Positions 32,645 to 62,288 of a stretch of DNA of 64,000 bases are shown in pieces. The notes under the pieces were generated by a model. The model was not told the origin of the DNA and ran no database searches. It was given only the letters and a program-made list of their open reading frames with translations. A program made the position numbers and the translations under genes. The DNA comes from Octopus vulgaris (lineage: Eukaryota): contig OX597816.1 in assembly GCA_951406725.2 (NCBI GenBank), positions 106,144,001-106,208,000 on the forward strand. Reading direction: 5' to 3'. Every line of letters begins with the position of its first letter. Position 1 is the first letter of the stretch.

Positions 32645-35600
32645 TTACACATATCTGGTCCTGTATTTTGATGGTGATGTTGGGATCTTTGGCACCATGC
32701 AGTGGTGCCCCGTTCTGCTGTTAGGGTAACTTTCAATGCCAAAATTTGGGACAAGGCCCTCCAGGATTTTCCAGATGTATATCACTGCATATCTCTCCCA
32801 CCTTCACTCCAGGGAGAAGAGTTTTAATACTTTCAGTCTTTCCCAGTAACTGATATGTTGCATTGAGATTATCTTCTTAGTGTAGCTTCATTGGATTGCT
32901 TCGAGTTCTGCTGTTGACTTTATATTGTGTGGGAGCAGTAGTCCAAGTGGCTGAGGACGAATGTCTTCCAAAGGACCATCAGTGTCTCCTTCTCTCTTGT
33001 TCTGAAAGTTCGGAGGATCCATCCAGCTAGCCGTCTGCATTTTATTACCAAATTGGCAATATGCACTTGGAAAGATGCATCATTGCTCATGTCAATGCCC
33101 AGGTCATGCACTGATTTTGACTCAGGAATTGCAATTCTTCCCAGGCCAGTGTATCCAGTCTGCATGTAATTCAGCTTTGTGTGCCAGTAGCGCAAGGCTT
33201 GGAACTTCCCTGCCTTAAACTGCATGTTGTTGTCCTCAGCCCACCTGTATATTGTATCCAACTCCCGTTGCAGATGTGCAATATTTCCAGGGTTTTGTAT
33301 TGTCTGAGAGACTTTTGTATCATCTGCGTTGCTTGCAAGGGTGGCCATCTTAGCAACTGAGGGCATGTCTGAAAGGGCCACAATGAACAACAGTGACCCC
33401 AAGACAGTGCCCTATGGAACACCACTTGTTATTTGTGTTGCCTAGGAGGTGACTCCATTGGTTGCCTTCTATCTTTTAGGAAGTTGTGCAGCCACTCTCC
33501 AAGTTTTCCGCCTATGCTGAGATCACGCAGTTTGTGGCAGATCATACCATGGTGACTTTATCAAAGGCTTTTGCAAAGTCGAGATATATCACATCCACAC
33601 TTGAGCCATTGAGTAGCTGTTTTAACACCCAGTCAAATTGTTGCAGGAGCTGTGTTAGACAGCTTCTGCCTGGTCAAAATCCATGCTGGGTGTCAGTCAA
33701 CCAGTCATTTTCTTTAAGGAACATGATTAGTTTCTTGCAGACTATCGTTCCATGACTTTGCTGATGTGTGAGGTCAGAAAGATAGGCCTATAATTTTTAG
33801 CATCTGCTCTGCTTCCTCCCTTATGGGTAGGGCATATTATCCCTTCTTTCAATTTGACTGGGAGCTTACCACTTGCAAGAAAGCTCTGAAAAAGAAGCTG
33901 TAACGGTTTTGCAAGGGCTCGTTTGCACGATTTGAGAAGAATCACTGGAAATCCATCAGGTCCAGCAGCTGAGTTTGTGTCAATCTCATCTATGGCCAGT
34001 GTGAGTGATATCATCATCTTCAATGTTGATGTACTCAATTTTTGCTTCTTTGGCTACAGGTAAAGTGGCAAAGAATTCTTCTGGTTTATTTACTTGTCTG
34101 TGTCTTAGAGGTGTAGTGAACACACTTTGGAACTGTTCGTTCAGTATTTCACTTATCCTCATGGGATTTCCTGTGAGGGAACCATCTTTTTGGAAGAGAG
34201 GTCCTATCCTCTGGCGCACTGCGGCCATCTCTTTGGCAAACTTAAAGAAGGCTTTAGGGTTTGACTTGATATTTTCTATAACCCAAGCTTCTTTATCTGC
34301 TCTCTCCTTTTCATGAGACTGATGCAGACTTTTCTCAATTTCCATTAGCATTCTCTCGAGGCGAGACTTCTCACCACTTTTGGTGTGCTTGCTCAGGCGG
34401 TTCGCAATCCTTGTCCGTTGTTTCATAAGAATCTTCCTTTCCCTAGGGATCCTGTTTTTGTGTGTGCTGGCCCTGCACACTGGGACATATTTGTCACATA
34501 TGGCTTGTATTATGGCCTTGAAACGTTTGCATTTCATATCAATGTCTGGTGTGGAAAAACATTTAGGCCAATCCTGTTTGCGGATCTCTTTCTCAATCAA
34601 CTTTCAATTTGCTTTATGAAAGTTTAGTTTGGAGATATTGTGGTTGGTAAGCAAGCTTCTTACCACACAGCCACTCTTGTTGGCAAGTAGATGGCTCTAT
34701 TATTATTAATACATTTAATAAAATACATTAAGGTATTTGATTATATCTTTTTAAGTCTTGTTTTCAAATCTTGCTCTGGTTCTGTGTTGAAAATCTTTTG
34801 TCTTATATGTGTTTTCCCTATACTCCTTCGTCATCTTTCTTTGCAATTTTTTTACTCTTATTACATTTATATAGATATATGTATCTGCATGTGTATAAAA
34901 TTGAATTTTATTTTGCTCCTCACAACAGTTGCTTCCAAGTACTGCTACTATATATCAGTGTTGGATAAAAATGGACCAACCAAAACCTACAGAGACAGAC
35001 ACTAAAGAAAATTATTCAGGTTTGGTTACTTTTTCCTATTTTTTAAAATATAAGAAAATTTTCTGTCATTAGTTTTAGTTGAAGAACCAGTTCAAAGTTT
35101 GATATGTTGTTTAGCTCATATAAACAGTTTGAAATATCTGGTTTTGAAGATCTAAATTGAATGCTTAGGGAAAGCCTTAGATTTGACTCATCAAGCATTC
35201 TATACTTTTGATGAATCTATCATGCAGAAAGGCCATATCAAATGCAGTGTTGTAAGTTAAAGCATTAGGTATTCATTTTACTGTTTAGTTTGATCATATA
35301 GGCTGAACACACTAGAATTAAATACATTAGAGATTGGCATGGCAAATTCTTTAAAATTCATTAGTAGTTTGCATAGAATTTAACATCTTGTCATAATGAG
35401 TAGATAGCAGAAACAGTAAAGTGTTGAAGAAATATTTTGTGGTATTTGGTTATGTTCTGAGTACTGATCCCCTTCAAGTCTACTTTTCATGCTTTACTTT
35501 GCATACATTTCTTACTTAAACTAAAATCTATTAAGTTCATGAAATAAGTACCCTGATTGTAACCTAGAAGGCAGTACCTCAGCAAGGCTACAATTGAATG

Positions 35601-41600: not shown

Positions 41601-44600
41601 GAATTGAAATTTCTATGTTGCTTTGAGGGGAAGGTAAAACTTGACAAACTGCTTCCCCTTCCGTAGTTGATGTTTGTTTAGAAAAGAGAGATTATGATTG
41701 TGATAAAATAATGAAAGCAATATTTACAAAGCAAGTGAGCACTATTATACAAAGAAATAATTAAATGTAAAATATTGTAAAAATGATTAGAATTGGGAAT
41801 CAAATGTGAAAATATTATCAAGTAGCTAGCAGAAAATTGCCCAGAGGTTGGTCTTTCTGCTAGTATTAATTAATTTATTAAATAGACACACAAAGGTGGT
41901 AGATTCAATCTGCTGTTGTTGAGTGTAAAACCACCACTTGGTTCTTGGGCTATTGTAGTAAAGTCCACTCAGCTGCAAACATTTAAGCTGGGTCTCTGAT
42001 CTGAAGATAATTTCTTCTTTCTCTTCTAGTCTATGAAGTCTCAAAAAAAAAGTCATGTGGGAACAATTACCTTTTTTCTTCTGACCAAGCCAAAAAACAA
42101 AAATTACTGATTACATCATTGTGGGTTTAATCATTACTCCCAATATGTTAAGCTCTGAACAATGCTCATGATCTTGCTTTAATTTGTCAAACTGACAAAA
42201 CATATTCCTTTCCAGAATGTCTCTCATTACAGATTTCATTTCTTTAAAATTAGAACTGAAAAAGTAAGAGGAGAGCATCCTTTGAAGATGGTTGCTAACT
42301 ATCATGCTATTTTAAGAACTTTGAAAGATGGGTGTTCCAAAATCCCTTGTTTGTTGTAGATATTACGATTATTCTGTTTTGAAATTGAATGGAGGAATAT
42401 GAGTTGTTGCTGTGTGACCCTAAGTTAGCTTTGGTTACAGTAACCTCTAGCATGTAGATAAGTAGTTGACTAAAAAAACTAGGTATTATCTACAAAGCTA
42501 TTGTTTCAGATATACATTACCTCTACCTATCTCAGGACCTTATTGCAATCTCCATCAGACAGTAATTAATCATTTAGTGTTGCAATCTGGACATGTTGCT
42601 TTCTCTGAACTGTCCAGTCTATTTCTGTATGCCAATAGATTTGTATGAGTATTTTGTTGAAATATATACCCATATCTTTCATGGATTTAAAGGTCTTTTT
42701 CATGTGAAATCATGAAATTCAACTTTTATCTTAAACGGGCTGCATGTTTATTTTTTTCTTTGTTATCAACTAACACTCAGCTACAACCATCATGTTTGGC
42801 ATCTCATATCCAGGTCTAATTTATTCAGTATATTCATCTATTTTGAATAGGTGATAGAAAAAATTTGAAGATTATGCTGCTATTTCTAGTATGCCAAACA
42901 GTCACATTGGTATGCTAACCAATTACTGCAGTTACTTGAGACATCATTCTCATGTTTAAATCTTTAAATATCTGAACAAAAGTCAATCACTGGGAATTAC
43001 TTTCTCCTCAGTAACCTTATGAGAGATTTAGGAGTCTTCATTCTTTTAAAGTCTTCCAAAATTGGTGGTGCTAATATCTCAATACCCTTGGACCAGAAAT
43101 CTGTTCCTAATGTTTGCAACAGAGTTAACACTACTAAATGCATGTGAGGACAAGGTGATGTTATTGAAAAACCAGGTGGTGAATGAACACTATCTCCCAA
43201 AAATAGAAACAGATCTACCCAACATCACTGAAAAGATCAACCTGAGACCATGGTAGAAGACACTTGGCCAAAATGCCATGTAGTAGGATTGAACTCAAAT
43301 TCACATAATTGCATCCAAAAGGTGATTCCGTCAACAGTATCTTCTGCCTTGAGTCTTATCAAAAGAAATTATCATCATCATGTATAACATCTGTTTATTT
43401 AATTAATTATTGTTCTCTTACTTTTTTTTAAATATCTAGATTACCATTCAGTCCTCTGATTATCATTGCTTCTGATCTGACAAAGGAAATACCTGCATCA
43501 AAAAATTCTGGTAACTTTTTTTTATTATTCTTGCTTCAGCATCTTCATTATGTTTTGTAATTATAAAATAACTAACACAAACTTATACACATAAATACAT
43601 AATGTCAGTATTTTCTGCTCTGATTTCTTGCATTTTGATTTTCATCATAAATCTGGTGATAAGTAACTGGTAATCTGAAGGTTTGGATTGTCTATGTTCA
43701 TTCCACTGCAGGACAAAGGCCTCAGCATGTTTTCTCCACCAATCACTGTCTGATATGCAGGTCATGAATTTGAGCTTGAAACCATTGGTTTGATGGACCT
43801 ACTCCGCTACATAGGCTCAACGTGGCTTGGCAGAAGGGTGCAGTTTTTATACTCTTACCCAGAAATAGTTAAGTCAATTACTTCAATCCCAGTGCTCAAC
43901 TGGTACTTATTTTATTGACCCTGAAAGGATGACAGGCAAAGTCAACCTGACAGAATTTGAACTAAGAACATAAAGAGGAATAAAATATCACTAAGCATTT
44001 CACCTGGTATGCTAGCAATTCTGCCAGCTCACTGCCATATAAGGGATAATGTTCTTAAGTGGGGCTTTTTTTGTATCATCATGAAATACTGTTTTATTTG
44101 TTTCAGTCACTAGACTGCACACATACTTGGGCAATTTCTCCTTTCATAATAAAATCTGTACAAAGAACATTGACTTTGCCTCTGACTACATCATGTTTTT
44201 AGGTACTTGTAGTTAACCCTAGACCTGTCCTGATCATGCTTACTTATGGTCAGAAGTGTTCCAGCCATAACCACCTCATCTTCTTTTAACTCTTAGAGTG
44301 ATATAGTGGAGGCAATGCTAGGTGTGCACGTGTTGTAGCACTGGTAAAGTGGTGTGGAAACATTGAGGGCAGCATGTTCTTGATTATGCATGTTTCGACC
44401 CTGTTTTGATCGACCAATCAAAATGTCAGTTACACCTGAAAGTAAGAGAATATGTCTGCGACCAGTCTTATTATTTTGGTAGTGTGTTCTTATAGGAATA
44501 GTGAGAAATTTCACAATGAAGTAAGATCTGATATGTGAAAGTGAGCCTGAGCCATCAAGATCAAAACACAAGAGCCAAAAGCTCTACACTACCAGCCAAG

Positions 44601-47600
44601 TGCTGGACATATTGGATGAATTCAATAGCCAATGCAGACACTACTGATTCTTCAAATTATGGGACCAGAACATTCCAGACAGCGTAAATGGTGAGTCTCA
44701 GCCAAATGTGTTTGTAAATATATTTTTAGATAATCAATTCTGGGAAAACCTTGCTATAGGAGCCTTGCTTCTCATCCATGTCAGAACTGGGCATAAATGG
44801 CTTGGGAGCCCAGACACAGGATTAGAGAGCATCAAAGTCAGGGCTCAAAGGTTTAAGGCAGGAGTGTTATTTTAGTGAGACATGGTTGCTATTTCTAGTA
44901 TTTCCTATAAACAAGTAGCAACTTCTTTTATATGTTCAGTATGTTTTTTATAATGGATATTTTAATTTTTTCTACAGAAACTTGTTGCAAAATATTGTTT
45001 TTTAATTTGTTTTGAAATTTCTTCTGGTTTTAACCATTTTATTTTCAGCCTTGAAAAATTTTCTAAGATTCGTGTTATTAGATTTGTTCCATGCTCAGTC
45101 GGATCCACTGGCTCTTTGTTCTTTTGTGCTCAACAAAAATATCAAAGACCTCTGGTGGATGAACAAAAGAATTGTTAATTATATCAGATTGATCTTACCA
45201 GACACAAAAGTAAGTAACAGTTAGATTTCAATATTGTTTCAAAGCCTGTTTCTGTACCTAAATTTTAATCCTTCCTAAATCAATCATATCATTTATATTT
45301 TCAGTTGAAAATAAAAACCAATCCTGTTGACCTTGAAACTGCTGAAACAGAAACATTTTCAGATTTGTTTAAAACATTCTACCGAAATTCTTCTGTCTGT
45401 ATTAACAATGAAAAATTCATAAAGCTACTACTGGATTCATTGAACTCCTTAAATGTTACTGAAACATTCAGGGCCTTCAATCAGAATCTATTTTATATTA
45501 AAGTTTCATTAAGCTGTTTTGCAAAGGTTTGTAAATCTATTTTTTACTTCCAATTAAACAAAATCTAAACGTATCTAAGTAAATTAACATTGCAAATTCA
45601 AAGCAAAATATTTGACTTCTTTCTCTCTTCCTGAAGTTGATGCTAATGGGATTTTTATGAACCTTTCAACTAACCTATTCCTTAAAACTGCAGCATGTTC
45701 ACCTTCTGGTCCAACTATTCTCTGTTGTAGACTTCTAGTCAGTCCGACTGGTCTTAGTTGCAAATTCTTTTCCATTTAGTCAAATCTACATGTAGCAATT
45801 TTGTGAGTATGTAATATTGAACTTGGGTGTAATAGTCTCAAGATTTGGATGAAGAGAAAAGACTGGACTTCGATTGATAATACCTGCATTGTAAATATCA
45901 TGCTAAGTTATAATTCTCTTCAGCTTAACATAGGCTCCTCACTGTTTGCAATAAATGACCTTTCATTGTAGACTGCAGAAAAACGAAACTTATTATTTAA
46001 CTATGGTGTTTAATTTTGATTTTTTTTTTTTTGATTTTTACAGGGTACTGAAGTTTTACCTGATGCCAGAAAAACTTTAGAACTTTATTTCAAAATTATA
46101 AAGAAAATATTAAATCATTTATTTGAAGCACTTTCAAAGGATTCCTCTGTAAATCCTTTAGAACAGTTTGCTCTGAAAGATTTTGAAATATTTCAAATGC
46201 AGAAGACTCCAGTGGGAGACCTCTTGAAGCAAGTCATTGATGTTCTCTCATCTCAAAGCTCTTTGCTGTATTGGTTTTTCTTTCTTGATAAAAATTCCTC
46301 AGAATCTAAATACACCAGTGAAACTTGCAGTTTTATCAAGAATCTTGTTACTGATGAATTAGTTCAGATATTTTGTCTTTTGTCTAAGGTATCCAGTAAG
46401 AAAAAACAGATCCTTTCCAGAAGTTTATAGCCTGAAAATACTTCAGTCTATAAATAATTTATGTCAGCAGTCCAAGAAAAAAGGAGATGTTAAAGCAGAT
46501 GAATTATCATTTATTTTTAGAAATTTAAGTGACCTTGTTGATACTCTTGATTTTATTATCATCCAAAAAATTATTACTACTTTTGTTCAATCCAAAAAGA
46601 ATAGGGTAGTTTATGAAGATAGTTTGAATATTTCTGGTGAAACTTTAATGAAGTTACTGAATCATTTATTAACAAATAGTAAAGATGTGGACTTAGAAAT
46701 AACAAATGTAAATATTATTTTTCATCTCCTGAAATCCTCTAAACTGTTGATGGGACTCTTTACGAGATTACTTCTTTAAAACCATATTACTGTTTAGTGT
46801 GCTCTGCCAAAACATTTAAATATTTCCTCACTGTGGAACCTCCAAATTATTTAAACCTGGTTCAGATTTTGATGAAATTTAATCCAAATTTAGATCAGGT
46901 TTTTGTTGACTGGATTCTGGAAGATGGCTTGACTAAGGACTTTTTGGAAACATATCTTGAAGTGTGTATTTCTTGGTGCCAATTGCAGAATGTACCACTT
47001 GAAGGTTTGTGGATTTCTTGATTATATTAACCTTAATCTTTTATCTAATGAAACATTTTTTGAAATATGTTAAGTATTTATTAACTGCAATTTTTAACAG
47101 TATTTACTTCCAAACTTTGTTGTTGTTGTTTTTTTGTTTTTTTTTTGACAAATTTTAGTTTTTACTTTTTACTGCCTTCCCAATATGTACTTCAGGAGAC
47201 ATATCAATAGAGTCACCACTTCCTTTTTTTCGTGTGACTTTTATCTGAAATTAATAGCTCTCTATCTACTTAATTTGAAGATTGTAAGTTGGCAAGTGAA
47301 AAACACCCAATATGCTTTTAAGTGTATATTCCAAAACAATAGCTGTTTCTGGTTTTCAGTGTAGTTGCTAATATTAATTTAATTTTCCATGTTACAGGTG
47401 ACAAAATAGTATGTCTCAAGAAAATCAGCAAGATTTACCGTAAATATCTGTCTAAATGGATGAACCAACTGGGAACTGAACCAGAGGATAGTTCTCACAA
47501 TACCAAATGNNNNNNNNNNNNNNNNNNNNNNNNNNNNNNNNNNNNNNNNNNNNNNNNNNNNNNNNNNNNNNNNNNNNNNNNNNNNNNNNNNNNNNNNNNN

Positions 47601-50600
47601 NNNNNNNNNATAACTAACACAAACTTATACACATAAATACATAATGTCAGTATTTTCTGCTCTGATTTCTTGCATTTTGATTTTCATCATAAATCTGGTG
47701 ATAAGTAACTGGTAATCTGAAGGTTTGGATTGTCTATGTTCATTCCACTGCAGGACAAAGGCCTCAGCATGTTTTCTCCACCAATCACTGTCTGATATGC
47801 AGGTCATGAATTTGAGCTTGAAACCATTGGTTTGATGGACCTACTCCGCTACATAGGCTCAACGTGGCTTGGCAGAAGGGTGCAGTTTTTATACTCTTAC
47901 CCAGAAATAGTTAAGTCAATTACTTCAATCCCAGTGCTCAACTGGTACTTATTTTATTGACCCTGAAAGGATGACAGGCAAAGTCAACCTGACAGAATTT
48001 GAACTAAGAACATAAAGAGGAATAAAATATCACTAAGCATTTCACCTGGTATGCTAGCAATTCTGCCAGCTCACTGCCATATAAGGGATAATGTTCTTAA
48101 GTGGGGCTTTTTTTGTATCATCATGAAATACTGTTTTATTTGTTTCAGTCACTAGACTGCACACATACTTGGGCAATTTCTCCTTTCATAATAAAATCTG
48201 TACAAAGAACATTGACTTTGCCTCTGACTACATCATGTTTTTAGGTACTTGTAGTTAACCCTAGACCTGTCCTGATCATGCTTACTTATGGTCAGAAGTG
48301 TTCCAGCCATAACCACCTCATCTTCTTTTAACTCTTAGAGTGATATAGTGGAGGCAATGCTAGGTGTGCACGTGTTGTAGCACTGGTAAAGTGGTGTGGA
48401 AACATTGAGGGCAGCATGTTCTTGATTATGCATGTTTCGACCCTGTTTTGATCGACCAATCAAAATGTCAGTTACACCTGAAAGTAAGAGAATATGTCTG
48501 CGACCAGTCTTATTATTTTGGTAGTGTGTTCTTATAGGAATAGTGAGAAATTTCACAATGAAGTAAGATCTGATATGTGAAAGTGAGCCTGAGCCATCAA
48601 GATCAAAACACAAGAGCCAAAAGCTCTACACTACCAGCCAAGTGCTGGACATATTGGATGAATTCAATAGCCAATGCAGACACTACTGATTCTTCAAATT
48701 ATGGGACCAGAACATTCCAGACAGCGTAAATGGTGAGTCTCAGCCAAATGTGTTTGTAAATATATTTTTAGATAATCAATTCTGGGAAAACCTTGCTATA
48801 GGAGCCTTGCTTCTCATCCATGTCAGAACTGGGCATAAATGGCTTGGGAGCCCAGACACAGGATTAGAGAGCATCAAAGTCAGGGCTCAAAGGTTTAAGG
48901 CAGGAGTGTTATTTTAGTGAGACATGGTTGCTATTTCTAGTATTTCCTATAAACAAGTAGCAACTTCTTTTATATGTTCAGTATGTTTTTTATAATGGAT
49001 ATTTTAATTTTTTCTACAGAAACTTGTTGCAAAATATTGTTTTTTAATTTGTTTTGAAATTTCTTCTGGTTTTAACCATTTTATTTTCAGCCTTGAAAAA
49101 TTTTCTAAGATTCGTGTTATTAGATTTGTTCCATGCTCAGTCGGATCCACTGGCTCTTTGTTCTTTTGTGCTCAACAAAAATATCAAAGACCTCTGGTGG
49201 ATGAACAAAAGAATTGTTAATTATATCAGATTGATCTTACCAGACACAAAAGTAAGTAACAGTTAGATTTCAATATTGTTTCAAAGCCTGTTTCTGTACC
49301 TAAATTTTAATCCTTCCTAAATCAATCATATCATTTATATTTTCAGTTGAAAATAAAACCAATCCTGTTGACCTTGAAACTGCTGAAACAGAAACATTTT
49401 CAGATTTGTTTAAAACATTCTACCGAAATTCTTCTGTCTGTATTAACAATGAAAAATTCATAAAGCTACTACTGGATTCATTGAACTCCTTAAATGTTAC
49501 TGAAACATTCAGGGCCTTCAATCAGAATCTATTTTATATTAAAGTTTCATTAAGCTGTTTTGCAAAGGTTTGTAAATCTATTTTTTACTTCCAATTAAAC
49601 AAAATCTAAACGTATCTAAGTAAATTAACATTGCAAATTCAAAGCAAAATATTTGACTTCTTTCTCTCTTCCTGAAGTTGATGCTAATGGGATTTTTATG
49701 AACCTTTCAACTAACCTATTCCTTAAAACTGCAGCATGTTCACCTTCTGGTCCAACTATTCTCTGTTGTAGACTTCTAGTCAGTCCGACTGGTCTTAGTT
49801 GCAAATTCTTTTCCATTTAGTCAAATCTACATGTAGCAATTTTGTGAGTATGTAATATTGAACTTGGGTGTAATAGTCTCAAGATTTGGATGAAGAGAAA
49901 AGACTGGACTTCGATTGATAATACCTGCATTGTAAATATCATGCTAAGTTATAATTCTCTTCAGCTTAACATAGGCTCCTCACTGTTTGCAATAAATGAC
50001 CTTTCATTGTAGACTGCAGAAAAACGAAACTTATTATTTAACTATGGTGTTTAATTTTGATTTTTTTTTTTTGATTTTTACAGGGTACTGAAGTTTTACC
50101 TGATGCCAGAAAAACTTTAGAACTTTATTTCAAAATTATAAAGAAAATATTAAATCATTTATTTGAAGCACTTTCAAAGGATTCCTCTGTAAATCCTTTA
50201 GAACAGTTTGCTCTGAAAGATTTTGAAATATTTCAAATGCAGAAGACTCCAGTGGGAGACCTCTTGAAGCAAGTCATTGATGTTCTCTCATCTCAAAGCT
50301 CTTTGCTGTATTGGTTTTTCTTTCTTGATAAAAATTCCTCAGAATCTAAATACACCAGTGAAACTTGCAGTTTTATCAAGAATCTTGTTACTGATGAATT
50401 AGTTCAGATATTTTGTCTTTTGTCTAAGGTATCCAGTAAGAAAAAACAGATCCTTCCAGAAGTTTATAGCCTGAAAATACTTCAGTCTATAAATAATTTA
50501 TGTCAGCAGTCCAAGAAAAAAGGAGATGTTAAAGCAGATGAATTATCATTTATTTTTAGAAATTTAAGTGACCTTGTTGATACTCTTGATTTTATTATCA

Positions 50601-51589
50601 TCCAAAAAATTATTACTACTTTTGTTCAATCCAAAAAGAATAGGGTAGTTTATGAAGATAGTTTGAATATTTCTGGTGAAACTTTAATGAAGTTACTGAA
50701 TCATTTATTAACAAATAGTAAAGATGTGGACTTAGAAATAACAAATGTAAATATTATTTTTCATCTCCTGAAATCCTCTAAACTGTTGATGGGACTCTTT
50801 ACGAGATTACTTCTTTTAAAACCATATTACTGTTTAGTGTGCTCTGCCAAAACATTTAAATATTTCCTCACTGTGGAACCTCCAAATTATTTAAACCTGG
50901 TTCAGATTTTGATGAAATTTAATCCAAATTTAGATCAGGTTTTTGTTGACTGGATTCTGGAAGATGGCTTGACTAAGGACTTTTTGGAAACATATCTTGA
51001 AGTGTGTATTTCTTGGTGCCAATTGCAGAATGTACCACTTGAAGGTTTGTGGATTTCTTGATTATATTAACCTTAATCTTTTATCTAATGAAACATTTTT
51101 TGAAATATGTTAAGTATTTATTAACTGCAATTTTTAACAGTATTTACTTCCAAACTTTGTTGTTGTTGTTTTTTTGTTTTTTTTTGACAAATTTTAGTTT
51201 TTACTTTTTACTGCCTTCCCAATATGTACTTCAGGAGACATATCAATAGAGTCACCACTTCCTTTTTTTCGTGTGACTTTTATCTGAAATTAATAGCTCT
51301 CTATCTACTTAATTTGAAGATTGTAAGTTGGCAAGTGAAAAACACCCAATATGCTTTTAAGTGTATATTCCAAAACAATAGCTGTTTCTGGTTTTCAGTG
51401 TAGTTGCTAATATTAATTTAATTTTCCATGTTACAGGTGACAAAATAGTATGTCTCAAGAAAATCAGCAAGATTTACCGTAAATATCTGTCTAAATGGAT
51501 GAACCAACTGGGAACTGAACCAGAGGATAGTTCTCACAATACCAAATGCCATAAACTTTTACAAGAATTTACTCGATTACATGTTTCTG
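10681..51589 (+). CDS. URB1: URB1/Npa1 nucleolar pre-ribosomal-associated protein 1, multi-exon, 5' ~1300 codons (3' part lies beyond the window)
   Basis: 20 GT-AG exons with consistent phases. Peptides [43 protein letters not shown]...[20 protein letters not shown] and [13 protein letters not shown] match, in order, motifs I recall from human URB1 (ILLRTASDL, LYNWNG, ILPDLNTVVWVW, VICLYQKVVP, DTGVF..ELELWL, VANPYSYTD, FPFSA, DLLHTQRDPLALC). Confidence 0.92.
14785..14921 (+). CDS. URB1: URB1 exon 2
   Basis: ttttacag|CT ... GAC|GTGAGT, peptide [23 protein letters not shown]. Confidence 0.88.
15928..16212 (+). CDS. URB1: URB1 exon 3
   Basis: tttttag|GCT ... GCG|GTAAGT, 95 codons, [19 protein letters not shown]. 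Confidence 0.9.
16410..16960 (-). mobile_element. Helitron PIF1-type helicase 3' remnant
   Basis: Minus-strand [29 protein letters not shown] and [15 protein letters not shown] hairpin TTGGGCC-TGC-GGCCCAA (16433-16449) precedes CTAG (16412-16415) on the minus strand. Confidence 0.7.
18937..19036 (+). CDS. URB1: URB1 exon 4
   Basis: ttctag|GTT ... A|[23 protein letters not shown]. Confidence 0.88.
19750..19832 (+). CDS. URB1: URB1 exon 5
   Basis: tttttag|CA ... AAG|[33 protein letters not shown]. Confidence 0.88.
19937..20131. mobile_element. mariner-type MITE
   Basis: TA-flanked TIRs CAAAGGGGTGCTGAAAAGTTCCTGGCTTTG / CAAAGCCAAGAACTTTTCAGCACCTCCTTG. Confidence 0.75.
20634..20860 (+). mobile_element. 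SINE (tRNA head with conserved central domain) with apparent TSD
   Basis: GAGTTCAAATTCCGCCGAGGTCGACTTTGCCTTTCATCC core and AATAAAGAAATAAG tail. Flanked by AGAAATATTTAAA(T/C)CAGG at 20616-20633 and 20860-20877. Confidence 0.7.
21220..21354 (+). CDS. URB1: URB1 exon 6
   Basis: ttacag|ATT ... AAA|[22 protein letters not shown]...LYNWIG. Confidence 0.9.
22395..22516 (+). CDS. URB1: URB1 exon 7
   Basis: ttttgcag|GTG ... CT|[30 protein letters not shown]. Confidence 0.9.
22840..24010 (+). mobile_element. Degenerate mariner transposon
   Basis: [38 protein letters not shown] and [12 protein letters not shown] across frameshifts. Confidence 0.85.
24411..24625 (-). mobile_element. RTE-tail short repeat ((CAT)n-GTTTAATGTCCGCTTTCCATGC family) inserted in mariner
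   Basis: Same motif as 31581-31789, 55917-56305 and 56575-56820. Confidence 0.8.
25302..26277 (+). mobile_element. 5'-truncated RTE-clade LINE (RT C-terminus plus 3' UTR)
   Basis: [33 protein letters not shown]. The 3' UTR ends GTCCAACCCATACCAGCATTGGAAGTGGACATTAAATGA...GATAATGAT. Confidence 0.85.
26466..27286 (+). mobile_element. Internally deleted maT (DD37D) transposon
   Basis: TA|CAGGGT...ACCCTG|TA. ORF 26721-27179 has MVFGVI and VWQQD-x37-D ([14 protein letters not shown]). Confidence 0.85.
28985..29186 (+). CDS. URB1: URB1 exon 8
   Basis: tgcag|C TCT ... AAG|[24 protein letters not shown]. Confidence 0.9.
29929..30066 (+). CDS. URB1: URB1 exon 9
   Basis: ttttag|GTT ... AAA|[14 protein letters not shown]...[10 protein letters not shown]. 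Confidence 0.88.
31109..31282 (+). CDS. URB1: URB1 exon 10
   Basis: ttttgcag|AAT ... AAA|[15 protein letters not shown]...[20 protein letters not shown]. Confidence 0.9.
31581..31789 (+). mobile_element. RTE-tail short repeat copy ending in (GAT)n
   Basis: ...TCCAACCCATGCTAGCATGGAAAGCAGACGTTAAACGATGATGATGAT. Confidence 0.8.
32170..32645. repeat. (TA)n/(TG)n compound microsatellite
   Basis: Direct reading of the sequence. Confidence 0.95.
32653..34690 (-). mobile_element. Degenerate CR1-group LINE ORF2 fragment
   Basis: [50 protein letters not shown], with stops and frameshifts. Same family as 62290-64000. Confidence 0.9.
34929..35019 (+). CDS. URB1: URB1 exon 11
   Basis: aacag|TTG ... G|[21 protein letters not shown]. 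Confidence 0.8.
36264..36550 (+). CDS. URB1: URB1 exon 12
   Basis: ttttcag|AC ... ATT|[17 protein letters not shown]. Confidence 0.88.
37710..37808 (+). CDS. URB1: URB1 exon 13
   Basis: ttctag|AAT ... CAG|GTAAAT, 33 codons. Confidence 0.82.
38100..38358 (+). CDS. URB1: URB1 exon 14
   Basis: accag|CTC ... A|[14 protein letters not shown]...[11 protein letters not shown]. Confidence 0.9.
39532..39592 (+). CDS. URB1: URB1 exon 15
   Basis: aatag|AT ... AG|GTAAAT, acidic [13 protein letters not shown]. Phases fit both neighbours. Confidence 0.78.
43440..43510 (+). CDS. URB1: URB1 exon 16
   Basis: tctag|A TTA ... G|[15 protein letters not shown]. Confidence 0.85.
45049..45209 (+). CDS. URB1: URB1 exon 17 (copy 1; duplicate at 49091-49251)
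   Basis: ttttcag|CC ... AAA|[20 protein letters not shown]. Confidence 0.88.
45305..45526 (+). CDS. URB1: URB1 exon 18 (intact copy 1; copy 2 at 49347-49567 has a 1-nt deletion)
   Basis: tttcag|TTG ... AAG|GTTTGT, 74 codons open. Confidence 0.82.
47510..47609. other. Assembly gap (100 N)
   Basis: Run of N. Confidence 1.
50084..51044 (+). CDS. URB1: URB1 exon 19 (intact copy 2; copy 1 at 46044-47004 has +1/-1 frameshifts)
   Basis: ttttacag|GGT ... G|GTTTGT, 961 nt open, includes most of ORF 50237-51061. Confidence 0.85.
51437..51589 (+). CDS. URB1: URB1 exon 20 (copy 1 at 47398-47509 is cut by the gap)
   Basis: ttacag|GT ... G|[27 protein letters not shown]. Confidence 0.82.
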
Positions 51590-52325
51590 GTATGTGTTTT
51601 ATCTCTTTTTCTTTTCTTTGAAGACTTCATTAAAAAAAAGAACATGCACACACACACACATTATCTGCATTCAGAAAAAAATTGAAGCTGACAAAATGGT
51701 TATAAAGTTAAGCAGATTTGCCTACAGACCATATGCTTGCAAATTCACATTTTACAACTTAAGCCCAGACAGTATTTTGTGTCTCTAAACAAAACATTTG
51801 CTTACTCCACTTTATCTTACTGATTTGCGACTTCACGATTGAGTAGTTAGTTGTATGAAGGATATCCAGCTGTAACAATTGGTCAAACAAAGAACCCATC
51901 TATTTTCCCAAACAAGCACAGAAAGATGAATGTCCACAAATGTGTGTGTGTGTGCATGCATGCGTGCACTCATGTCTACACTTTTACTGGTGTCAGTCAT
52001 TAGATTGCAGCCATACTTTAATCATATTGATCTCTATTTGTCAGACCACTTGGTTGAGGAACATACACAACAGTACCATATGGGTGTTTGTATTCATTGG
52101 TTTTAATGAATGTGAGAAAAAGTATTCAGCATAGTATTGAGTGGAGTATACTTTTGGTTTCCATGATGGCTATACACCAAAGAATCTCAAGAATAACAGA
52201 TTTTTAGATTAGCCTAAATAAATTCTTTGTGTAATGAGCTTGTGCATAGTTTTTGTTTACCAATATACATACATATATATATATTATACATGTATATATA
52301 TATATTATACATGTATATACACACA

Positions 52326-52361
<36 letters not shown>

Positions 52362-52641
52362 CAACAATTGAGGGTAAAATTAATTAATTAATCAATTTCA
52401 CCAAGTATTCAGTATACAAAGGGACCATTTAAGGCGAATTCAAATTATTACATTATATAAAAGGGCTTAGTAAAATAATTTACTTTGCCGCATACTGAAC
52501 TCATTAGAAATAGCAGCTAAAAAAACTTTTTTAAAACTATCTCCAATACTTAAAGAAAATCTCTCTCGTATAGTGTTTGCTCAATTCAACTCACGAAAGT
52601 ATGAGGGTAGAGACATTAAAAAATCAAATGCAAAGGTTATT

Positions 52642-52693
52642 TGAGAACGTACGTTTCAAGATTAGTCAAATCGACACTTCTATCATCAGCTCA
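52642..52693 (-). ncRNA. Minimal type-I hammerhead ribozyme motif, copy 1
   Basis: Minus strand UGAG-CUGAUGA-UAGAAGUGUCGAUUUGACUAAUCUU-GAAAC-GUAC-GUU-CUCA: stem I UGAG/CUCA, intact core, palindromic stem III. Confidence 0.72.
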
Positions 52694-53198
52694 GAACTCC
52701 CTGGTTTGGATTTGAAAACACTGAAAGCGGGAGCATACCCTTTCGGCCTGTTATCGCTTCTGAAGATCTGTTCAAAACTAACAGTGTTAGCAAATTCAAA
52801 TATGCAAACGAAGAATTTCTGCTCTCCCCTTTCCACCAGCGTGGGTTAAAATCAGCAAACATTATGCTTTTTTTCGGTAAAATCCGAGGCATTATATAGA
52901 GAGAGATGAATTATAATTTCAACAATTGAGGGTAAAATTAATTAATTAATCAATTTCACCAAGTATTCAGTATACAAAGGGACCATTTAAGGCGAATTCA
53001 AATTATTACATTATATAAAAGGGCTTAGTAAAATAATTTACTTTGCCGCATACTGAACTCATTAGAAATAGCAGCTAAAAAAACTTTTTAAAACTATCTC
53101 CAATACTTAAAGAAAATCTCTCTCGTATAGTGTTTGCTCAATTCAACTCACGAAAGTATGAGGGTAGAGACATTAAAAAATCAAATGCAAAGGTTATT

Positions 53199-53250
53199 TG
53201 AGAACGTACGTTTCAAGATTAGTCAAATCGACACTTCTATCATCAGCTCA
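53199..53250 (-). ncRNA. Minimal type-I hammerhead ribozyme motif, copy 2
   Basis: Identical to copy 1, 557 bp away. Confidence 0.72.
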
Positions 53251-53480
53251 GAACTCCTGGTTTGGATTTGAAAACACTGAAAGCGGGAGCATACCCTTTC
53301 GGCCTGTTATCGCTTCTGAAGATCTGTTCAAAACTAACAGTGTTAGCAAATTCAAATATGCAAACGAAGAATATTTGAATTTGCTAACACTGTTAGTTTT
53401 GAACAGATCTTCAGAAGCGATAACAGGCCGAAAGGGTATGCTCCCGCTTTCAGTGTTTTCAAATCCAAACCAGGGAGTTC

Positions 53481-53532
53481 TGAGCTGATGATAGGAGTGT
53501 CGATTTGACTAATCTTGAAACGTACGTTCTCA
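53481..53532 (+). ncRNA. Minimal type-I hammerhead ribozyme motif, copy 3
   Basis: TGAGCTGATGATAGGAGTGTCGATTTGACTAATCTTGAAACGTACGTTCTCA, with one A>G in stem II. Confidence 0.72.
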
Positions 53533-54037
53533 AATAACCTTTGCATTTGATTTTTTAATGTCTCTACCCTCATACTTTCGTGAGTTGAATTGAGCAAACA
53601 CTATACGAGAGAGATTTTCTTTAAGTATTGGTGATAGTTTTAAAAAAGTTTTTTTAGCTGCTATTTCTAATGAGTTCAGTATGCGGCAAAGTAAATTATT
53701 TTACTAAGCCCTTTTATATAATGTAATAATTTGAATTCGCCTTAAATGGTCCCTTTGTATACTGAATACTTGGTGAAATTGATTAATTAATTAATTTTAC
53801 CCTCAATTGTTGAAATTATAATTCATCTCTCTCTATATAATGCCTCGGATTTTACCGAAAAAAGCATAATGTTTGCTGATTTTAACCCACGCTGGTGGAA
53901 AGGGGAGAGCAGAAATTCTTCGTTTGCATATTTGAATTTGCTAACACTGTTAGTTTTGAACAGATCTTCAGAAGCGATAACAGGCCGAAAGGGTATGCTC
54001 CCGCTTTCAGTGTTTTCAAATCCAAACCAGGGAGTTC

Positions 54038-54089
54038 TGAGCTGATGATAGAAGTGTTGATTTGACTAATCTTGAAACGTACGTTCTCA
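54038..54089 (+). ncRNA. Minimal type-I hammerhead ribozyme motif, copy 4
   Basis: TGAGCTGATGATAGAAGTGTTGATTTGACTAATCTTGAAACGTACGTTCTCA. A C>T in stem II keeps a G-U pair. Confidence 0.72.
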
Positions 54090-54285
54090 AATAACCTTTG
54101 CATTTGATTTTTTAATGTCTCTACCCTCATACTTTCGTGAGTTGAATTGAGCAAACACTATACGAGAGAGATTTTCTTTAAGTATTGGAGATAGTTTTAA
54201 AAAAGTTTTTTTAGCTGCTATTTCTAATGAGTTCAGTATGCGGCAAAGTAAATTATTTTACTAAGCCCTTTTATATAATGTAATA

Positions 54286-55916
<1,631 letters not shown>

Positions 55917-56305
55917 CATCATCATCATCATCATCGTTTAACGTCCGCTTTCCATGCTAGCATGGGTTGGACGGTTCAACTGGGGTCTGGGAAGCCCGAA
56001 GGCTGCACCAGGCCAGTCAGATGTGGCAGTGTTTCTACAGCTGGATGCCCTTCCTAACGCCAACCACTCCGAGAGTGTAGTGGGTGATTTTATGTGCCAC
56101 CGACACAGGTGCCAGACGAGGCTGGCAGACGGCCACGCTCGGATGGTGTTTTTTATGTGCCACCGACACAGGTGCCAGACGAGGCTGGCAGACGGCCACG
56201 CTCGGATGGTGTTTTCTTATGTGTCACCGACACAGGTGCCAGACGAGGCTGGCGGACGGCCACGCTCGGATGGTGTTTGTTACGTGCCCTCAGCACGGAG
56301 GCCAA
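55917..56305 (-). mobile_element. RTE-tail short repeat with internal ~62-bp x3 tandem
   Basis: (CAT)n-CGTTTAACGTCCGCTTTCCATGCTAGCATGGGTTGGACGG. ATGTGCCACCGACACAGGTGCCAGACGAGGCTGGCAGACGGCCACGCTCGGATGGTG is repeated three times at ~56090-56280. Confidence 0.8.
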
Positions 56306-56574: not shown

Positions 56575-57562
56575 CATCATCATCATCATCATCATCGTTT
56601 AACGTCCGCTTTCCGCGCTAGCACGGGTTGGACGGTTTGACCGGGTCTGGGAAGCCAGGGGCCGCACCAGGCTCCAGTCTGAATCTGGCAGAGTTTCTAC
56701 GGCTGGATGCCCTTCCTAACGCCAACCACTCCGTGAGTGGATTGGGTGCTTTTTACGTGCCACCTGCACAGGGGCCGGAGGGTCCGGCATCGTCACGATC
56801 GGTTCGAGCATTTTAACGTGTCAGCGGCACGGGGGCAACGAGGTCCGGGGTACTTTGGGGATCCAGGGTACTTTGGGGATCCGGGGTACTTAGAATGAGT
56901 AGGGGGTATGTGGAATTGCTGCAGAAAGCAGCCCGGGTCTTTGTAGTCACAGCATTTATCGTCACTGAGTAAGGAAGGGTTGGTGTAGGTTCCTAAGAAA
57001 TAAAGACATTCGTTATCGTCACTGAGTAACGTTATTAGGTAGAGGAAAGAATACAGATATTCTAGAGTTGAGTTGGGGAGGGGGGGGGGTCCAGTTGAGG
57101 TGGGTAATATAGGGGAGCAACCAGTGGGGAAGGTTGGGGTAAGGAGGAACGATGGCAGGAAGGGTTGGTGTAGGTTCCTAAGAAATAAAAACGTAGGATA
57201 TTACGAGGCGGGAGGGTGCTAAAGGGGATAGTCGGAATGAAGCAGTGTCAGGAGGAAGCGTAAGATCGGTGGGCAGTTGATGAGCTATGGCGCTAGCAGC
57301 TTGTCTTTTCACAGTGAAAGCATATGAGGAGAAGGGGTAGTGGGGGGAGGAGGAGGGAGTAGGGCGTACCCGGTGTAGATGAGTAAGGCGTATCCGGTGT
57401 AGATGGTGAGGACAGGGTATACTGGTATTGGTGGTGGGGGGTGAGGAACAGTGTTCACCAGTATTGGTGGTGTTGGCGGTGAGAACAGTGTTCACCGGTA
57501 TTGGTGGTGGGGGTGAGAACAGTGTTCATCGGTATTGGTGGTGGGGGTGGGGGGCGGGCGCA
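56575..57562 (-). mobile_element. Longer non-autonomous RTE-tailed element (G-rich + strand, minisatellites) running into the 317-bp array
   Basis: Same (CAT)n tail motif at 56575-56820, an 18-bp x3 repeat at ~56845-56890 and ~36-bp repeats at ~57420-57545. No coding capacity. Confidence 0.65.
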
Positions 57563-60500
57563 CCGCCAATGGCTGAAAGATGGAAAGAGAAGGGAAGAGA
57601 TGGGATTACGGCTTGAGGTAGCCTAGCCTAAGGTTAAATTTTGTAGAGAGAGAGATAGAAAGATAAATCAAGTTATGGCGAAGGCTTGAAAGTAGCCTTA
57701 AAAGGTTAAATTTTCGTAACAATGTATGAATAAACGTAGTAACAACGAATAGAAATATTAAGATAAATTTTTTTAAAGAACTTGCTGCGGACATCGGTCG
57801 GGAGTTGAAATTGAAGAAGTAAGTTAGTTGAATTGGGAATTTAAATTGTAGAATCGTAATGGTAAGAGGAGGAAAAAGACCGCCAAATGGCTGAAAGATG
57901 GAAAGAGATGGGAAGAGATGGGATTACGGCTTGAGGTAGCCTAGCCTAAGGTTAAATTTTGTAGAGAGAGAGATAGAAAGATAAATCAAGTTATGGCGAA
58001 GGCTTGAAAGTAGCCTTAAAAGGTTAAATTTTCGTAACAATGTATGAATAAACGTAGTAACAACGAATAGAAATATTAAGATAAATTTTTAAAGAACTTG
58101 CTGCGGACATCGGTCGGGAGTTGAAATTGAAGAAGTAAGTTAGTTGAATTGGGAATTTAAATTGTAGAATCGTAATGGTAAGAGGAGGAAAAAGACCGCC
58201 AAATGGCTGAAAGATGGAAAGAGATGGGAAGAGATGGGATTACGGCTTGAGGTAGCCTAGCCTAAGGTTAAATTTTGTAGAGAGAGAGATAGAAAGATAA
58301 ATCAAGTTATGGCGAAGGCTTGAAAGTAGCCTTAAAAGGTTAAATTTTCGTAACAATGTATGAATAAACGTAGTAACAACGAATAGAAATATTAAGATAA
58401 ATTTTTAAAGAACTTGCTGCGGACATCGGTCGGGAGTTGAAATTGAAGAAGTAAGTTAGTTGAATTGGGAATTTAAATTGTAGAATCGTAATGGTAAGAG
58501 GAGGAAAAAAAGACCGCCAAATGGCTGAAAGATGGAAAGAGATGGGAAGAGATGGGATTACGGCTTGAGGTAGCCTAGCCTAAGGTTAAATTTTGTAGAG
58601 AGAGAGATAGAAAGATAAATCAAGTTATGGCGAAGGCTTGAAAGTAGCCTTAAAAGGTTAAATTTTCGTAACAATGTATGAATAAACGTAGTAACAACGA
58701 ATAGAAATATTAAGATAAATTTTTAAAGAACTTGCTGCGGACATCGGTCGGGAGTTGAAATTGAAGAAGTAAGTTAGTTGAATTGGGAATTTAAATTGTA
58801 GAATCGTAATGGTAAGAGGAGGAAAAAAGACCGCCAAATGGCTGAAAGATGGAAAGAGATGGGAAGAGATGGGATTACGGCTTGAGGTAGCCTAGCCTAA
58901 GGTTAAATTTTGTAGAGAGAGAGATAGAAAGATAAATCAAGTTATGGCGAAGGCTTGAAAGTAGCCTTAAAAGGTTAAATTTTCGTAACAATGTATGAAT
59001 AAACGTAGTAACAACGAATAGAAATATTAAGATAAATTTTTAAAGAACTTGCTGCGGACATCGGTCGGGAGTTGAAATTGAAGAAGTAAGTTAGTTGAAT
59101 TGGGAATTTAAATTGTAGAATCGTAATGGTAAGAGGAGGAAAAAAGACCGCCAAATGGCTGAAAGATGGAAAGAGATGGGAAGAGATGGGATTACGGCTT
59201 GAGGTAGCCTAGCCTAAGGTTAAATTTTGTAGAGAGAGAGATAGAAAGATAAATCAAGTTATGGCGAAGGCTTGAAAGTAGCCTTAAAAGGTTAAATTTT
59301 CGTAACAATGTATGAATAAACGTAGTAACAACGAATAGAAATATTAAGATAAATTTTTAAAGAACTTGCTGCGGACATCGGTCGGGAGTTGAAATTGAAG
59401 AAGTAAGTTAGTTGAATTGGGAATTTAAATTGTAGAATCGTAATGGTAAGAGGAGGAAAAAAGACCGCCAAATGGCTGAAAGATGGAAAGAGATGGGAAG
59501 AGATGGGATTACGGCTTGAGGTAGCCTAGCCTAAGGTTAAATTTTGTAGAGAGAGAGATAGAAAGATAAATCAAGTTATGGCGAAGGCTTGAAAGTAGCC
59601 TTAAAAGGTTAAATTTTCGTAACAATGTATGAATAAACGTAGTAACAACGAATAGAAATATTAAGATAAATTTTTAAAGAACTTGCTGCGGACATCGGTC
59701 GGGAGTTGAAATTGAAGAAGTAAGTTAGTTGAATTGGGAATTTAAATTGTAGAATCGTAATGGTAAGAGGAGGAAAAAAGACCGCCAAATGGCTGAAAGA
59801 TGGAAAGAGATGGGAAGAGATGGGATTACGGCTTGAGGTAGCCTAGCCTAAGGTTAAATTTTGTAGAGAGAGAGATAGAAAGATAAATCAAGTTATGGCG
59901 AAGGCTTGAAAGTAGCCTTAAAAGGTTAAATTTTCGTAACAATGTATGAATAAACGTAGTAACAACGAATAGAAATATTAAGATAAATTTTTAAAGAACT
60001 TGCTGCGGACATCGGTCGGGAGTTGAAATTGAAGAAGTAAGTTAGTTGAATTGGGAATTTAAATTGTAGAATCGTAATGGTAAGAGGAGGAAAAAAGACC
60101 GCCAAATGGCTGAAAGATGGAAAGAGATGGGAAGAGATGGGATTACGGCTTGAGGTAGCCTAGCCTAAGGTTAAATTTTGTAGAGAGAGAGATAGAAAGA
60201 TAAATCAAGTTATGGCGAAGGCTTGAAAGTAGCCTTAAAAGGTTAAATTTTCGTAACAATGTATGAATAAACGTAGTAACAACGAATAGAAATATTAAGA
60301 TAAATTTTTAAAGAACTTGCTGCGGACATCGGTCGGGAGTTGAAATTGAAGAAGTAAGTTAGTTGAATTGGGAATTTAAATTGTAGAATCGTAATGGTAA
60401 GAGGAGGAAAAAAGACCGCCAAATGGCTGAAAGATGGAAAGAGATGGGAAGAGATGGGATTACGGCTTGAGGTAGCCTAGCCTAAGGTTAAATTTTGTAG

Positions 60501-61664
60501 AGAGAGAGATAGAAAGATAAATCAAGTTATGGCGAAGGCTTGAAAGTAGCCTTAAAAGGTTAAATTTTCGTAACAATGTATGAATAAACGTAGTAACAAC
60601 GAATAGAAATATTAAGATAAATTTTTAAAGAACTTGCTGCGGACATCGGTCGGGAGTTGAAATTGAAGAAGTAAGTTAGTTGAATTGGGAATTTAAATTG
60701 TAGAATCGTAATGGTAAGAGGAGGAAAAAAGACCGCCAAATGGCTGAAAGATGGAAAGAGATGGGAAGAGATGGGATTACGGCTTGAGGTAGCCTAGCCT
60801 AAGGTTAAATTTTGTAGAGAGAGAGATAGAAAGATAAATCAAGTTATGGCGAAGGCTTGAAAGTAGCCTTAAAAGGTTAAATTTTCGTAACAATGTATGA
60901 ATAAACGTAGTAACAACGAATAGAAATATTAAGATAAATTTTTAAAGAACTTGCTGCGGACATCGGTCGGGAGTTGAAATTGAAGAAGTAAGTTAGTTGA
61001 ATTGGGAATTTAAATTGTAGAATCGTAATGGTAAGAGGAGGAAAAAAGACCGCCAAATGGCTGAAAGATGGAAAGAGATGGGAAGAGATGGGATTACGGC
61101 TTGAGGTAGCCTAGCCTAAGGTTAAATTTTGTAGAGAGAGAGATAGAAAGATAAATCAAGTTATGGCGAAGGCTTGAAAGTAGCCTTAAAAGGTTAAATT
61201 TTCGTAACAATGTATGAATAAACGTAGTAACAACGAATAGAAATATTAAGATAAATTTTTAAAGAACTTGCTGCGGACATCGGTCGGGAGTTGAAATTGA
61301 AGAAGTAAGTTAGTTGAATTGGGAATTTAAATTGTAGAATCGTAATGGTAAGAGGAGGAAAAAAGACCGCCAAATGGCTGAAAGATGGAAAGAGATGGGA
61401 AGAGATGGGATTACGGCTTGAGGTAGCCTAGCCTAAGGTTAAATTTTGTAGAGAGAGAGATAGAAAGATAAATCAAGTTATGGCGAAGGCTTGAAAGTAG
61501 CCTTAAAAGGTTAAATTTTCGTAACAATGTATGAATAAACGTAGTAACAACGAATAGAAATATTAAGATAAATTTTTAAAGAACTTGCTGCGGACATCGG
61601 TCGGGAGTTGAAATTGAAGAAGTAAGTTAGTTGAATTGGGAATTTAAATTGTAGAATCGTAATG
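57563..61664. repeat. Tandem array of 13 x 317-bp units (last one truncated)
   Basis: Unit starts (CCGCCAAATGGCTGAAAG) at 57563, 57880, 58196, 58514, 58831, 59148, 59465, 59782, 60099, 60416, 60733, 61050 and 61367. Units are nearly identical. Confidence 0.97.

Positions 61665-62288
<624 letters not shown>

Follow-up and report, generated by a model that had tools for sequence, protein, structure and literature searches.

A high-copy, non-coding 557-bp repeat with a candidate hammerhead ribozyme, inserted head to head in a likely URB1 intron of Octopus vulgaris

In a 64-kb stretch of Octopus vulgaris DNA (the whole stretch analyzed, called the window here), four hammerhead-like motifs lie downstream of exons of the gene URB1. 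What kind of element carries them, and is it likely to make RNA that cuts itself? The initial annotation proposed a non-autonomous retroelement mobilized by a Penelope reverse transcriptase (RT). We analyzed the locus, its predicted RNA folds, and related copies in public sequencing runs, and compared them with published elements.

Layout of the insertion and its surroundings

We took the full unit at 52354-52911 as the reference for unit coordinates (positions 1 to 558). The initial annotation described a single tandem arrangement. Instead, the locus is an inverted insertion in which two partial tandems are set head to head, 1.83 units on the minus strand and 1.65 units on the plus strand (Table 1), and only one unit, the reference, is complete. 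The right arm is an inverted copy of 52442-53359 that stops 88 nt before the family end, leaving the arm ends unequal by that length. Both arms start near unit position 100. Over 917 aligned bases, the mirrored parts (52442-53359 and 53371-54289) differ by three substitutions and three one-base indels. Each difference is private to one copy, and three of the six are homopolymer indels. With an octopus rate of 0.0036 per million years (PMC13282606), the three substitutions suggest that the insertion is under ~1 million years old, a rough figure that ignores gene conversion.

Table 1. Coordinates of the insertion, its motifs, and its flanks in the window
Feature	Positions	Strand	Remarks
Last located URB1/Npa1 exon	51436..51589	+	GTATGT donor at 51590, 764 nt before the insertion
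(TA)n microsatellite, left flank	52263..52357		Likely target
Left arm	52354..53372	-	1.83 units: full unit 52354-52911 plus unit positions 96-558
Type I hammerhead motif, left outer	52642..52693	-	Predicted cut after 52646
Type I hammerhead motif, left inner	53199..53250	-	Predicted cut after 53203
Head-to-head junction	53358..53372		11 unpaired bases, 13-nt offset in unit coordinates, 2-nt AT microhomology
Right arm	53371..54289	+	1.65 units: unit positions 109-558 plus 1-470
Type I hammerhead motif, right inner	53481..53532	+	A>G at 53495 gives G·U in helix II; predicted cut after 53528
Predicted 557-nt cut-to-cut RNA	53529..54085	+	34% GC; no ORF with a database match
Type I hammerhead motif, right outer	54038..54089	+	C>T at 54058 gives U·G in helix II; predicted cut after 54085
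(TA)n/(CA)n microsatellite, right flank	54292..55916		Likely target

Both outer ends of the insertion abut (TA)n, and no target-site duplication is readable because the insertion sits inside this repeat. The left outer end, 52354, is the recurrent 3' end of the family (see below). We infer that the head-to-head junction is likely a snap-back (self-priming) point. Nested hairpins at 53756-53801 and 54228-54241, including a 13-bp stem, lie just ahead of the recurrent 3' end at 53820. As modeled, they are a candidate recognition signal for the mobilizing enzyme.

The host gene was identified from an exon ORF that matches nucleolar pre-ribosomal-associated protein 1 (URB1) of Octopus bimaculoides (89%; one match among 4501 candidates) and from an upstream exon with a Pfam Npa1 match (one of 13 ORFs scanned; one other matched RVT_1). 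URB1 exons span 10708-51589 on the plus strand. The insertion had been placed in a URB1 intron. The upstream half of that claim holds, with octopod URB1 exons and a splice donor at 51590, whereas no downstream exon was located, because the only homologue found ends at the last exon. Judged from the gene structure, an intronic position is likely. Within the gene, 43568-47509 and 47610-51548 form a 3.9-kb direct duplication (99.87%) across a 100-N gap. It repeats URB1 exons, its first copy is frameshifted, and it is likely a false duplication in the assembly.

The window holds other repeats. At 57562-61664 is a 317-bp tandem array of 12.9 copies, of which the inner ones are 100% identical. The array ends mid-unit directly in (TA)n at 61665, and it has no hammerhead in a relaxed scan, no tRNA, and no Rfam match. 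Possibly it is another young concatemer insertion or a collapsed satellite. A 386-nt inverted repeat (925-1309 versus 1435-1819; 94.6%) covers ORF remnants that lack a Pfam match and that we presume to be transposase-like. Three copies of a ~200-bp dispersed repeat, SINE-like in size, occur at 24410-24623, 31580-31788, and 55916-56122 with 85-89% identity.

Six-frame translations of the insertion, read with X at stops, had no Pfam match, and no RT plus GIY-YIG ORF was found within it. An 84-aa sense ORF (53791-54042), which ends in the motif and looked like a GIY-YIG C-terminus, was rejected as such after database searches gave no homologue. The missing RT ORF had been called unusual, but lack of an RT ORF is what defines retrozymes. 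The ATG inside the hammerhead core is followed by a stop after six codons at the locus, whereas the corresponding ATG of the anole element PAc is reported to start an ORF (PMC11167929). RT-like remnants elsewhere in the window are more than 17 kb from the insertion. One LINE remnant has an RVT_1 Pfam match at 6808-7290 (ORF 6808-7293, minus strand), and another consists of broken RT-like frames at 32920-34603 (minus strand) without a Pfam match. Neither adjoins the insertion.

The hammerhead motif and its predicted folds

All four motifs lie exactly where they were first annotated, and the two in each arm are spaced 557 nt apart. Their common sequence is UGAG / CUGAUGA / U / helix II / U / GAAA-C-GUAC-GUU / CUCA. 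The conserved core (CUGANGA / GAAA / UH) is intact in all four copies, with helices I to III around it and with stem I formed by UGAG/CUCA, as the initial annotation had it. Helix I has four Watson-Crick pairs. From its base, helix II runs through a U·U, 3 bp, a 3x3 internal loop, and another 3 bp to a 5-nt loop, and the motif lacks the conserved G10.1-C11.1 pair. Helix III has two pairs, with GUAC as the closing loop, and ACGUACGU is a palindrome throughout. The description of stem III as reduced therefore needs amending: it is palindromic, but it is not a loop-less minimal form, having 2 bp plus a palindromic GUAC loop.

The exact pattern matched four times in the window and never in 100 shuffles. 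Because the pattern was drawn from the motif and its matches are copies of one unit, these count as a single independent motif. Relaxing the pattern to the core plus a palindromic helix III plus a stem I of at least 3 bp added no further match on either strand of the 64 kb. The Rfam hammerhead models, to which the initial annotation had looked for corroboration, do not supply it: no family reached its gathering score in the 64-kb window, and there was no hammerhead match in it up to E 10. The E-value matches that did appear were microRNA models on the central palindrome and the microsatellites, which we rejected as chance. Pattern scans of metagenome contigs for the motif gave zero matches.

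With one independent motif and no Rfam match, the repeat could be an ordinary satellite or a SINE-like sequence, amplified at the DNA level, with a hammerhead-like string by chance. However, the core, helices I and II, and the palindromic helix III coincide in one 52-nt stretch and nowhere else in the 128 kb scanned. Furthermore, the fixed (TA)n end and the head-to-head junction point to retrotransposition, and there is no tRNA gene in the window. We regard a chance resemblance as very improbable.

A second, decayed hammerhead was considered at ~54184-54228. It was rejected, being a hairpin without GAAA that is present too in a variant loose end of sequencing run X3. At this hairpin, which has equivalents in the other copies, most family contigs have A-U where the window has G·U (54187 and 54190), and some have C-G in place of the U·G at 54195. 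By this sequence comparison, the hairpin 3' of the hammerhead is a conserved-looking structure.

Folding energies for the hammerhead itself ranged from -1.1 to +1.2 kcal/mol for the monomer, versus -15.0 for a double hammerhead and -9.8 for the helix III duplex. Therefore, any activity is predicted to need a dimer. Single motifs have minimum-energy folds other than the hammerhead, and these do no better than the folds of shuffled sequences (z +0.7 to +1.7). Likewise, the unconstrained two-strand fold (-27.3 kcal/mol, with longer flanks) is another structure and not the double hammerhead.

Folded as a circle, the predicted 557-nt RNA had -138 kcal/mol with 62% of its bases paired, and 0 of 40 shuffles were as stable (z -4.4). 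The rotated unit folded as a circle gave z -8.0 for the sense and -3.0 for the antisense strand. Thirteen of 15 control tiles were above z -2.7, and the other two were at -4.1 and -24.5. Covariation across the listed family variants gave no clear signal for the circle fold: 13 variants broke predicted pairs, against 14.6 expected by chance (p 0.34), and 16 kept them, against 10.8 (p 0.02). Since variants break pairs about as often as chance, selection on the circle structure is not established. The four copies at the locus, being nearly identical, carry no covariation of their own.

When the full locus is folded as a read-through transcript, both sense motifs are predicted to pair along their entire length (52 of 52 bases) within a ~920-bp hairpin. 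With both buried in this way, the copies at the locus are unlikely to cut URB1 pre-mRNA. Since the read-through RNA carries the antisense arm first and then pairs, the model predicts that the ribozymes here are silenced in it. Octopus is known for heavy A-to-I editing, and a ~920-bp hairpin in a likely intron would be a candidate editing substrate.

A dispersed family in public sequencing runs

The unit or part of it was present in 20 of 24 public runs, which came from nine studies and four organism codes and none of which is recorded as RNA. We aligned contigs from four of the 20 unit-bearing runs (X1, X7, X17, and X3) to 53733-54289 at a likeness of at least 80%. This gave 4055, 2768, 1736, and 210 unit-like contigs, respectively, most of them 90-99% alike; these are contig counts per run and not the true copy number of the unit. 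The initial annotation had named a single-copy unit as evidence against its proposal. What we found is a dispersed multi-copy family with many variant sites and a shared end.

That end is at 53820, the equivalent of the left end 52354. There, at least eight contigs in X17 and at least three in X3 pass into (TA)n, among the 24 of 274 loose ends listed, which makes it the recurrent 3' end of the family. The comparison covers the left end of the insertion, the right end lying at the edge of the stretch used for alignment. Other contigs continue across the family end, reaching at least 31 letters into both sides in X7 and X1 and 27-28 letters in the other two runs. Therefore, head-to-tail copies exist at other places. 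A joint from 54289 to 53733, seen in all four runs, was rejected as proof of tandems: the stretch used for alignment is a rotated unit, and the joint lies inside the monomer.

Among the variants listed, five substitution sites fall in the 52 nt of the motif: one at the free core position N7, one that turns the U·U into A-U, and three in helix II or its loop. The U>C variant at N7 occurs at equal depth to the U>A that closes helix II with A-U. None of the 40 variant sites listed (of 56) is in the 26 constrained motif positions, but this is not significant (P about 0.14). A diverged subfamily appears as loose ends at 54023-54060 in X7 and X17. The sequence ahead of its motif is replaced, but its core still reads CUGACGA, its helix I arm is UGGG, and the base of its helix II has an A. 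The share of depth of the A-U subfamily, 11% in X3 versus 2.4-2.5%, was set aside: that X3 is RNA is only a guess, and contigs cannot show ends.

The joints in these runs bear on whether the inverted doubling is an assembly fold-back artifact, with only one arm real. The window's own head-to-head junction was absent among the joints listed in X1, X7, X17, and X3. The near-identical 3.9-kb duplication across its gap is 800 nt upstream in the same assembly, and homopolymer indels make up half of the arm differences. However, X7 has other opposite-strand joints, at two other places in the unit, and one locus among thousands may be absent from the sequenced individuals. Furthermore, the mirror stops 88 nt before the left-arm end, without reaching unique flank as a chimeric read would, and the arms carry three private substitutions. 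We consider an artifact very unlikely.

Relation to Penelope-like elements and non-LTR retrozymes

The initial annotation thought the GUU triplet and the U·U at the helix II base unusual. However, GUU occurs in 12 and U17 in 20 of the 44 rows that we counted in a published Penelope hammerhead alignment (PMC4209133), two Lottia motifs among them. The U·U is found in the Drosophila willistoni row of that alignment and in axolotl HHR_Amex2 (PMC7229834), which also has a 2-bp helix III like that of the octopus motif. In addition, the D. willistoni row has CUGAUGAU-AGAA...UCU-U in common with the octopus motif, and the Saccoglossus row has the GUAC loop. A short helix I, a palindromic helix III that requires a dimer, and frequent GUU are traits shared with the hammerheads reported from Penelope pseudo-LTRs (pLTRs) (Cervera & de la Pena 2014, PMC4209133). 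Dimer dependence has been described for published Penelope hammerheads (PMC4209133, PMC6765202). In contrast to the pLTR hammerheads in PMC4209133, the octopus unit has no ORF between repeats, no G10.1-C11.1, and a 3x3 loop in helix II.

Non-LTR retrozymes with type I hammerheads have been reported from coral, mussel, and axolotl (Cervera & de la Pena 2020, PMC7229834). Like them, the octopus repeat is a non-coding tandem unit with GC below 45% (34% here), a predicted self-paired circle, and many copies; each unit has a single type I hammerhead, and two or more motif-bearing units follow one another. Known mussel retrozyme families measure 350-390 bp (PMC7229834; Li, Clavereau & Pollet 2026, 10.64898/2026.07.22.740005). 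At 557 bp, the octopus unit is longer than the 150-450 bp of most non-LTR retrozyme repeats and is within the 51-972 bp given in 10.64898/2026.07.22.740005. It also differs from metazoan non-LTR retrozymes in having a helix I of only 4 bp and no recognizable contact between loop 1 and loop 2. Three of the four octopus motifs pass the -5 kcal/mol filter described in that preprint, but only via non-hammerhead folds. By the account in the same preprint, non-LTR retrozymes derive from Penelope pLTRs, and 44% of X. tropicalis retrozyme copies are in introns.

The insertion resembles those described for Penelope elements, which have partial tandems, AT-rich or microsatellite targets, and unequal ends (Arkhipova et al. 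2013, PMC3846280; Craig et al. 2021, PMC8557442; Frangieh et al. 2024, PMC11167929), as well as an inverted, 5'-truncated copy that meets the first head to head at a short offset (PMC3846280, PMC8557442). It differs in that both arms are longer than one unit and the ends differ by 88 nt and not by a 30-40-bp tail. Cleavage of AT-rich DNA by a Penelope enzyme has been reported in vitro (PMC11167929), and palindromic head-to-head junctions of Penelope have been read as self-priming (PMC3846280, PMC8557442).

The 557-bp unit might then be the pLTR of an autonomous Penelope family, with the locus a 5'-truncated inverted remnant and no separate non-autonomous family. Inverted and partial-tandem pLTRs are described as the norm for autonomous elements (PMC8557442, PMC3846280), and 30 recently active Penelope families are reported in octopus (PMC13282606). 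However, the unit closes head to tail twice at the locus without a coding insert. Almost no aligned contig runs on into unlike sequence (a share of 0, 0, 0, and 0.01 in the four runs), though the contigs are short. Furthermore, the six frames have no Pfam match, and the 84-aa ORF has no homologue. We think this origin unlikely.

Instead, we read the observed motif, unit, inverted layout, flanks, high copy number, and recurrent end as a head-to-head insertion of a high-copy, non-coding 557-bp repeat. It was probably mobilized in trans by a Penelope-like RT/endonuclease, as a non-LTR retrozyme would be. That it belongs to a Penelope-dependent, non-coding class of element, without regard to details, is very likely. 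The original call of a non-autonomous, hammerhead-bearing, Penelope-type element is thus strengthened by the high copy number, the recurrent (TA)n end, and the head-to-head junction, while ribozyme cleavage keeps its candidate status.

How might the locus have formed? In the scheme that we propose, a tandem source locus would be transcribed, and two hammerheads would pair through the ACGUACGU palindrome and cut after GUU. The 557-nt RNA released would then be circularized. A Penelope enzyme would nick (TA)n, prime at the family 3' end (52354), and copy 1.83 units from the circle or from an uncut multimer. The cDNA would fold back on the 2-nt AT match, copy itself for 919 nt, stop 88 nt short of its start, and be joined to the other side of the (TA)n tract. 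Snap-back of a cDNA would account for the left end alone being the family end, for the right arm lying inside the mirror of the left, and for the short offset. Twin priming was considered for the inversion. Alone it fails to explain why the mirror of the left arm contains the whole right arm at a 13-nt offset, by which it is disfavored rather than eliminated. The four copies differ only by private changes in a diverse family, which fits one circular template; a homogeneous uncut multimer fits too.

The last point matters because the same Penelope-dependent element could have a weak or vestigial hammerhead and move as uncut linear multimer RNA, without a circle. Helix II is weak and interrupted and has U·U at its base instead of G-C, the minimum-energy folds of the motifs are not hammerheads, and the conservation of the core is not significant. 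Both arms start near unit position 100, which might be a transcript 5' end. Published cases offer parallels. PAc is reported to insert from uncut RNA; its hammerhead is protein-assisted and dispensable for insertion in vitro, and no RNA-seq ends are reported at its cut site (PMC11167929). Among nine Xenopus retrozyme dimers, one was reported to be cleaved and eight were not (10.64898/2026.07.22.740005). However, the core is intact in four of four copies, and the diverged subfamily in X7 and X17 retains CUGACGA with a compatible helix I arm. In addition, axolotl HHR_Amex2, with an equal U·U and a 2-bp helix III, is reported to cleave, and better as a dimer (PMC7229834). A weak or vestigial ribozyme is a serious possibility, if not the one that we favor, and we put the chances of real cleavage with circular RNA as about even.

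Most likely, then, the repeat is an octopod member of the known class of non-LTR retrozymes, with predicted ribozyme activity, and new for cephalopods in the literature searched. No hammerhead or retrozyme family of cephalopods was described in that literature, though Repbase, Dfam, or the O. vulgaris Zenodo library may contain it. Penelope-like elements are reported to make up 6.83% of O. vulgaris, in 190 families, in the supplement of PMC13282606, where the words ribozyme, hammerhead, and retrozyme do not occur.

No concept is changed by this locus, since the class, the motif variants, and the layout are already published. The locus is a clean young example (three substitutions in 917 bp) of a head-to-head junction of debated origin, and the repeat is a high-copy candidate ribozyme family that Rfam misses. 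A bolder reading, which we offer tentatively and think rather doubtful, is that the genomes of octopods harbor a very abundant retrozyme family that is undescribed, remains active, and produces a circular RNA of 557 nt. Its loci would directly record rolling reverse transcription from one template, followed by snap-back of the cDNA, with the palindrome silencing the ribozymes. If that were true, thousands of such junctions would allow genome-only tests of the unsettled mechanism of Penelope inversion. The finding itself would extend non-LTR retrozymes to cephalopods.
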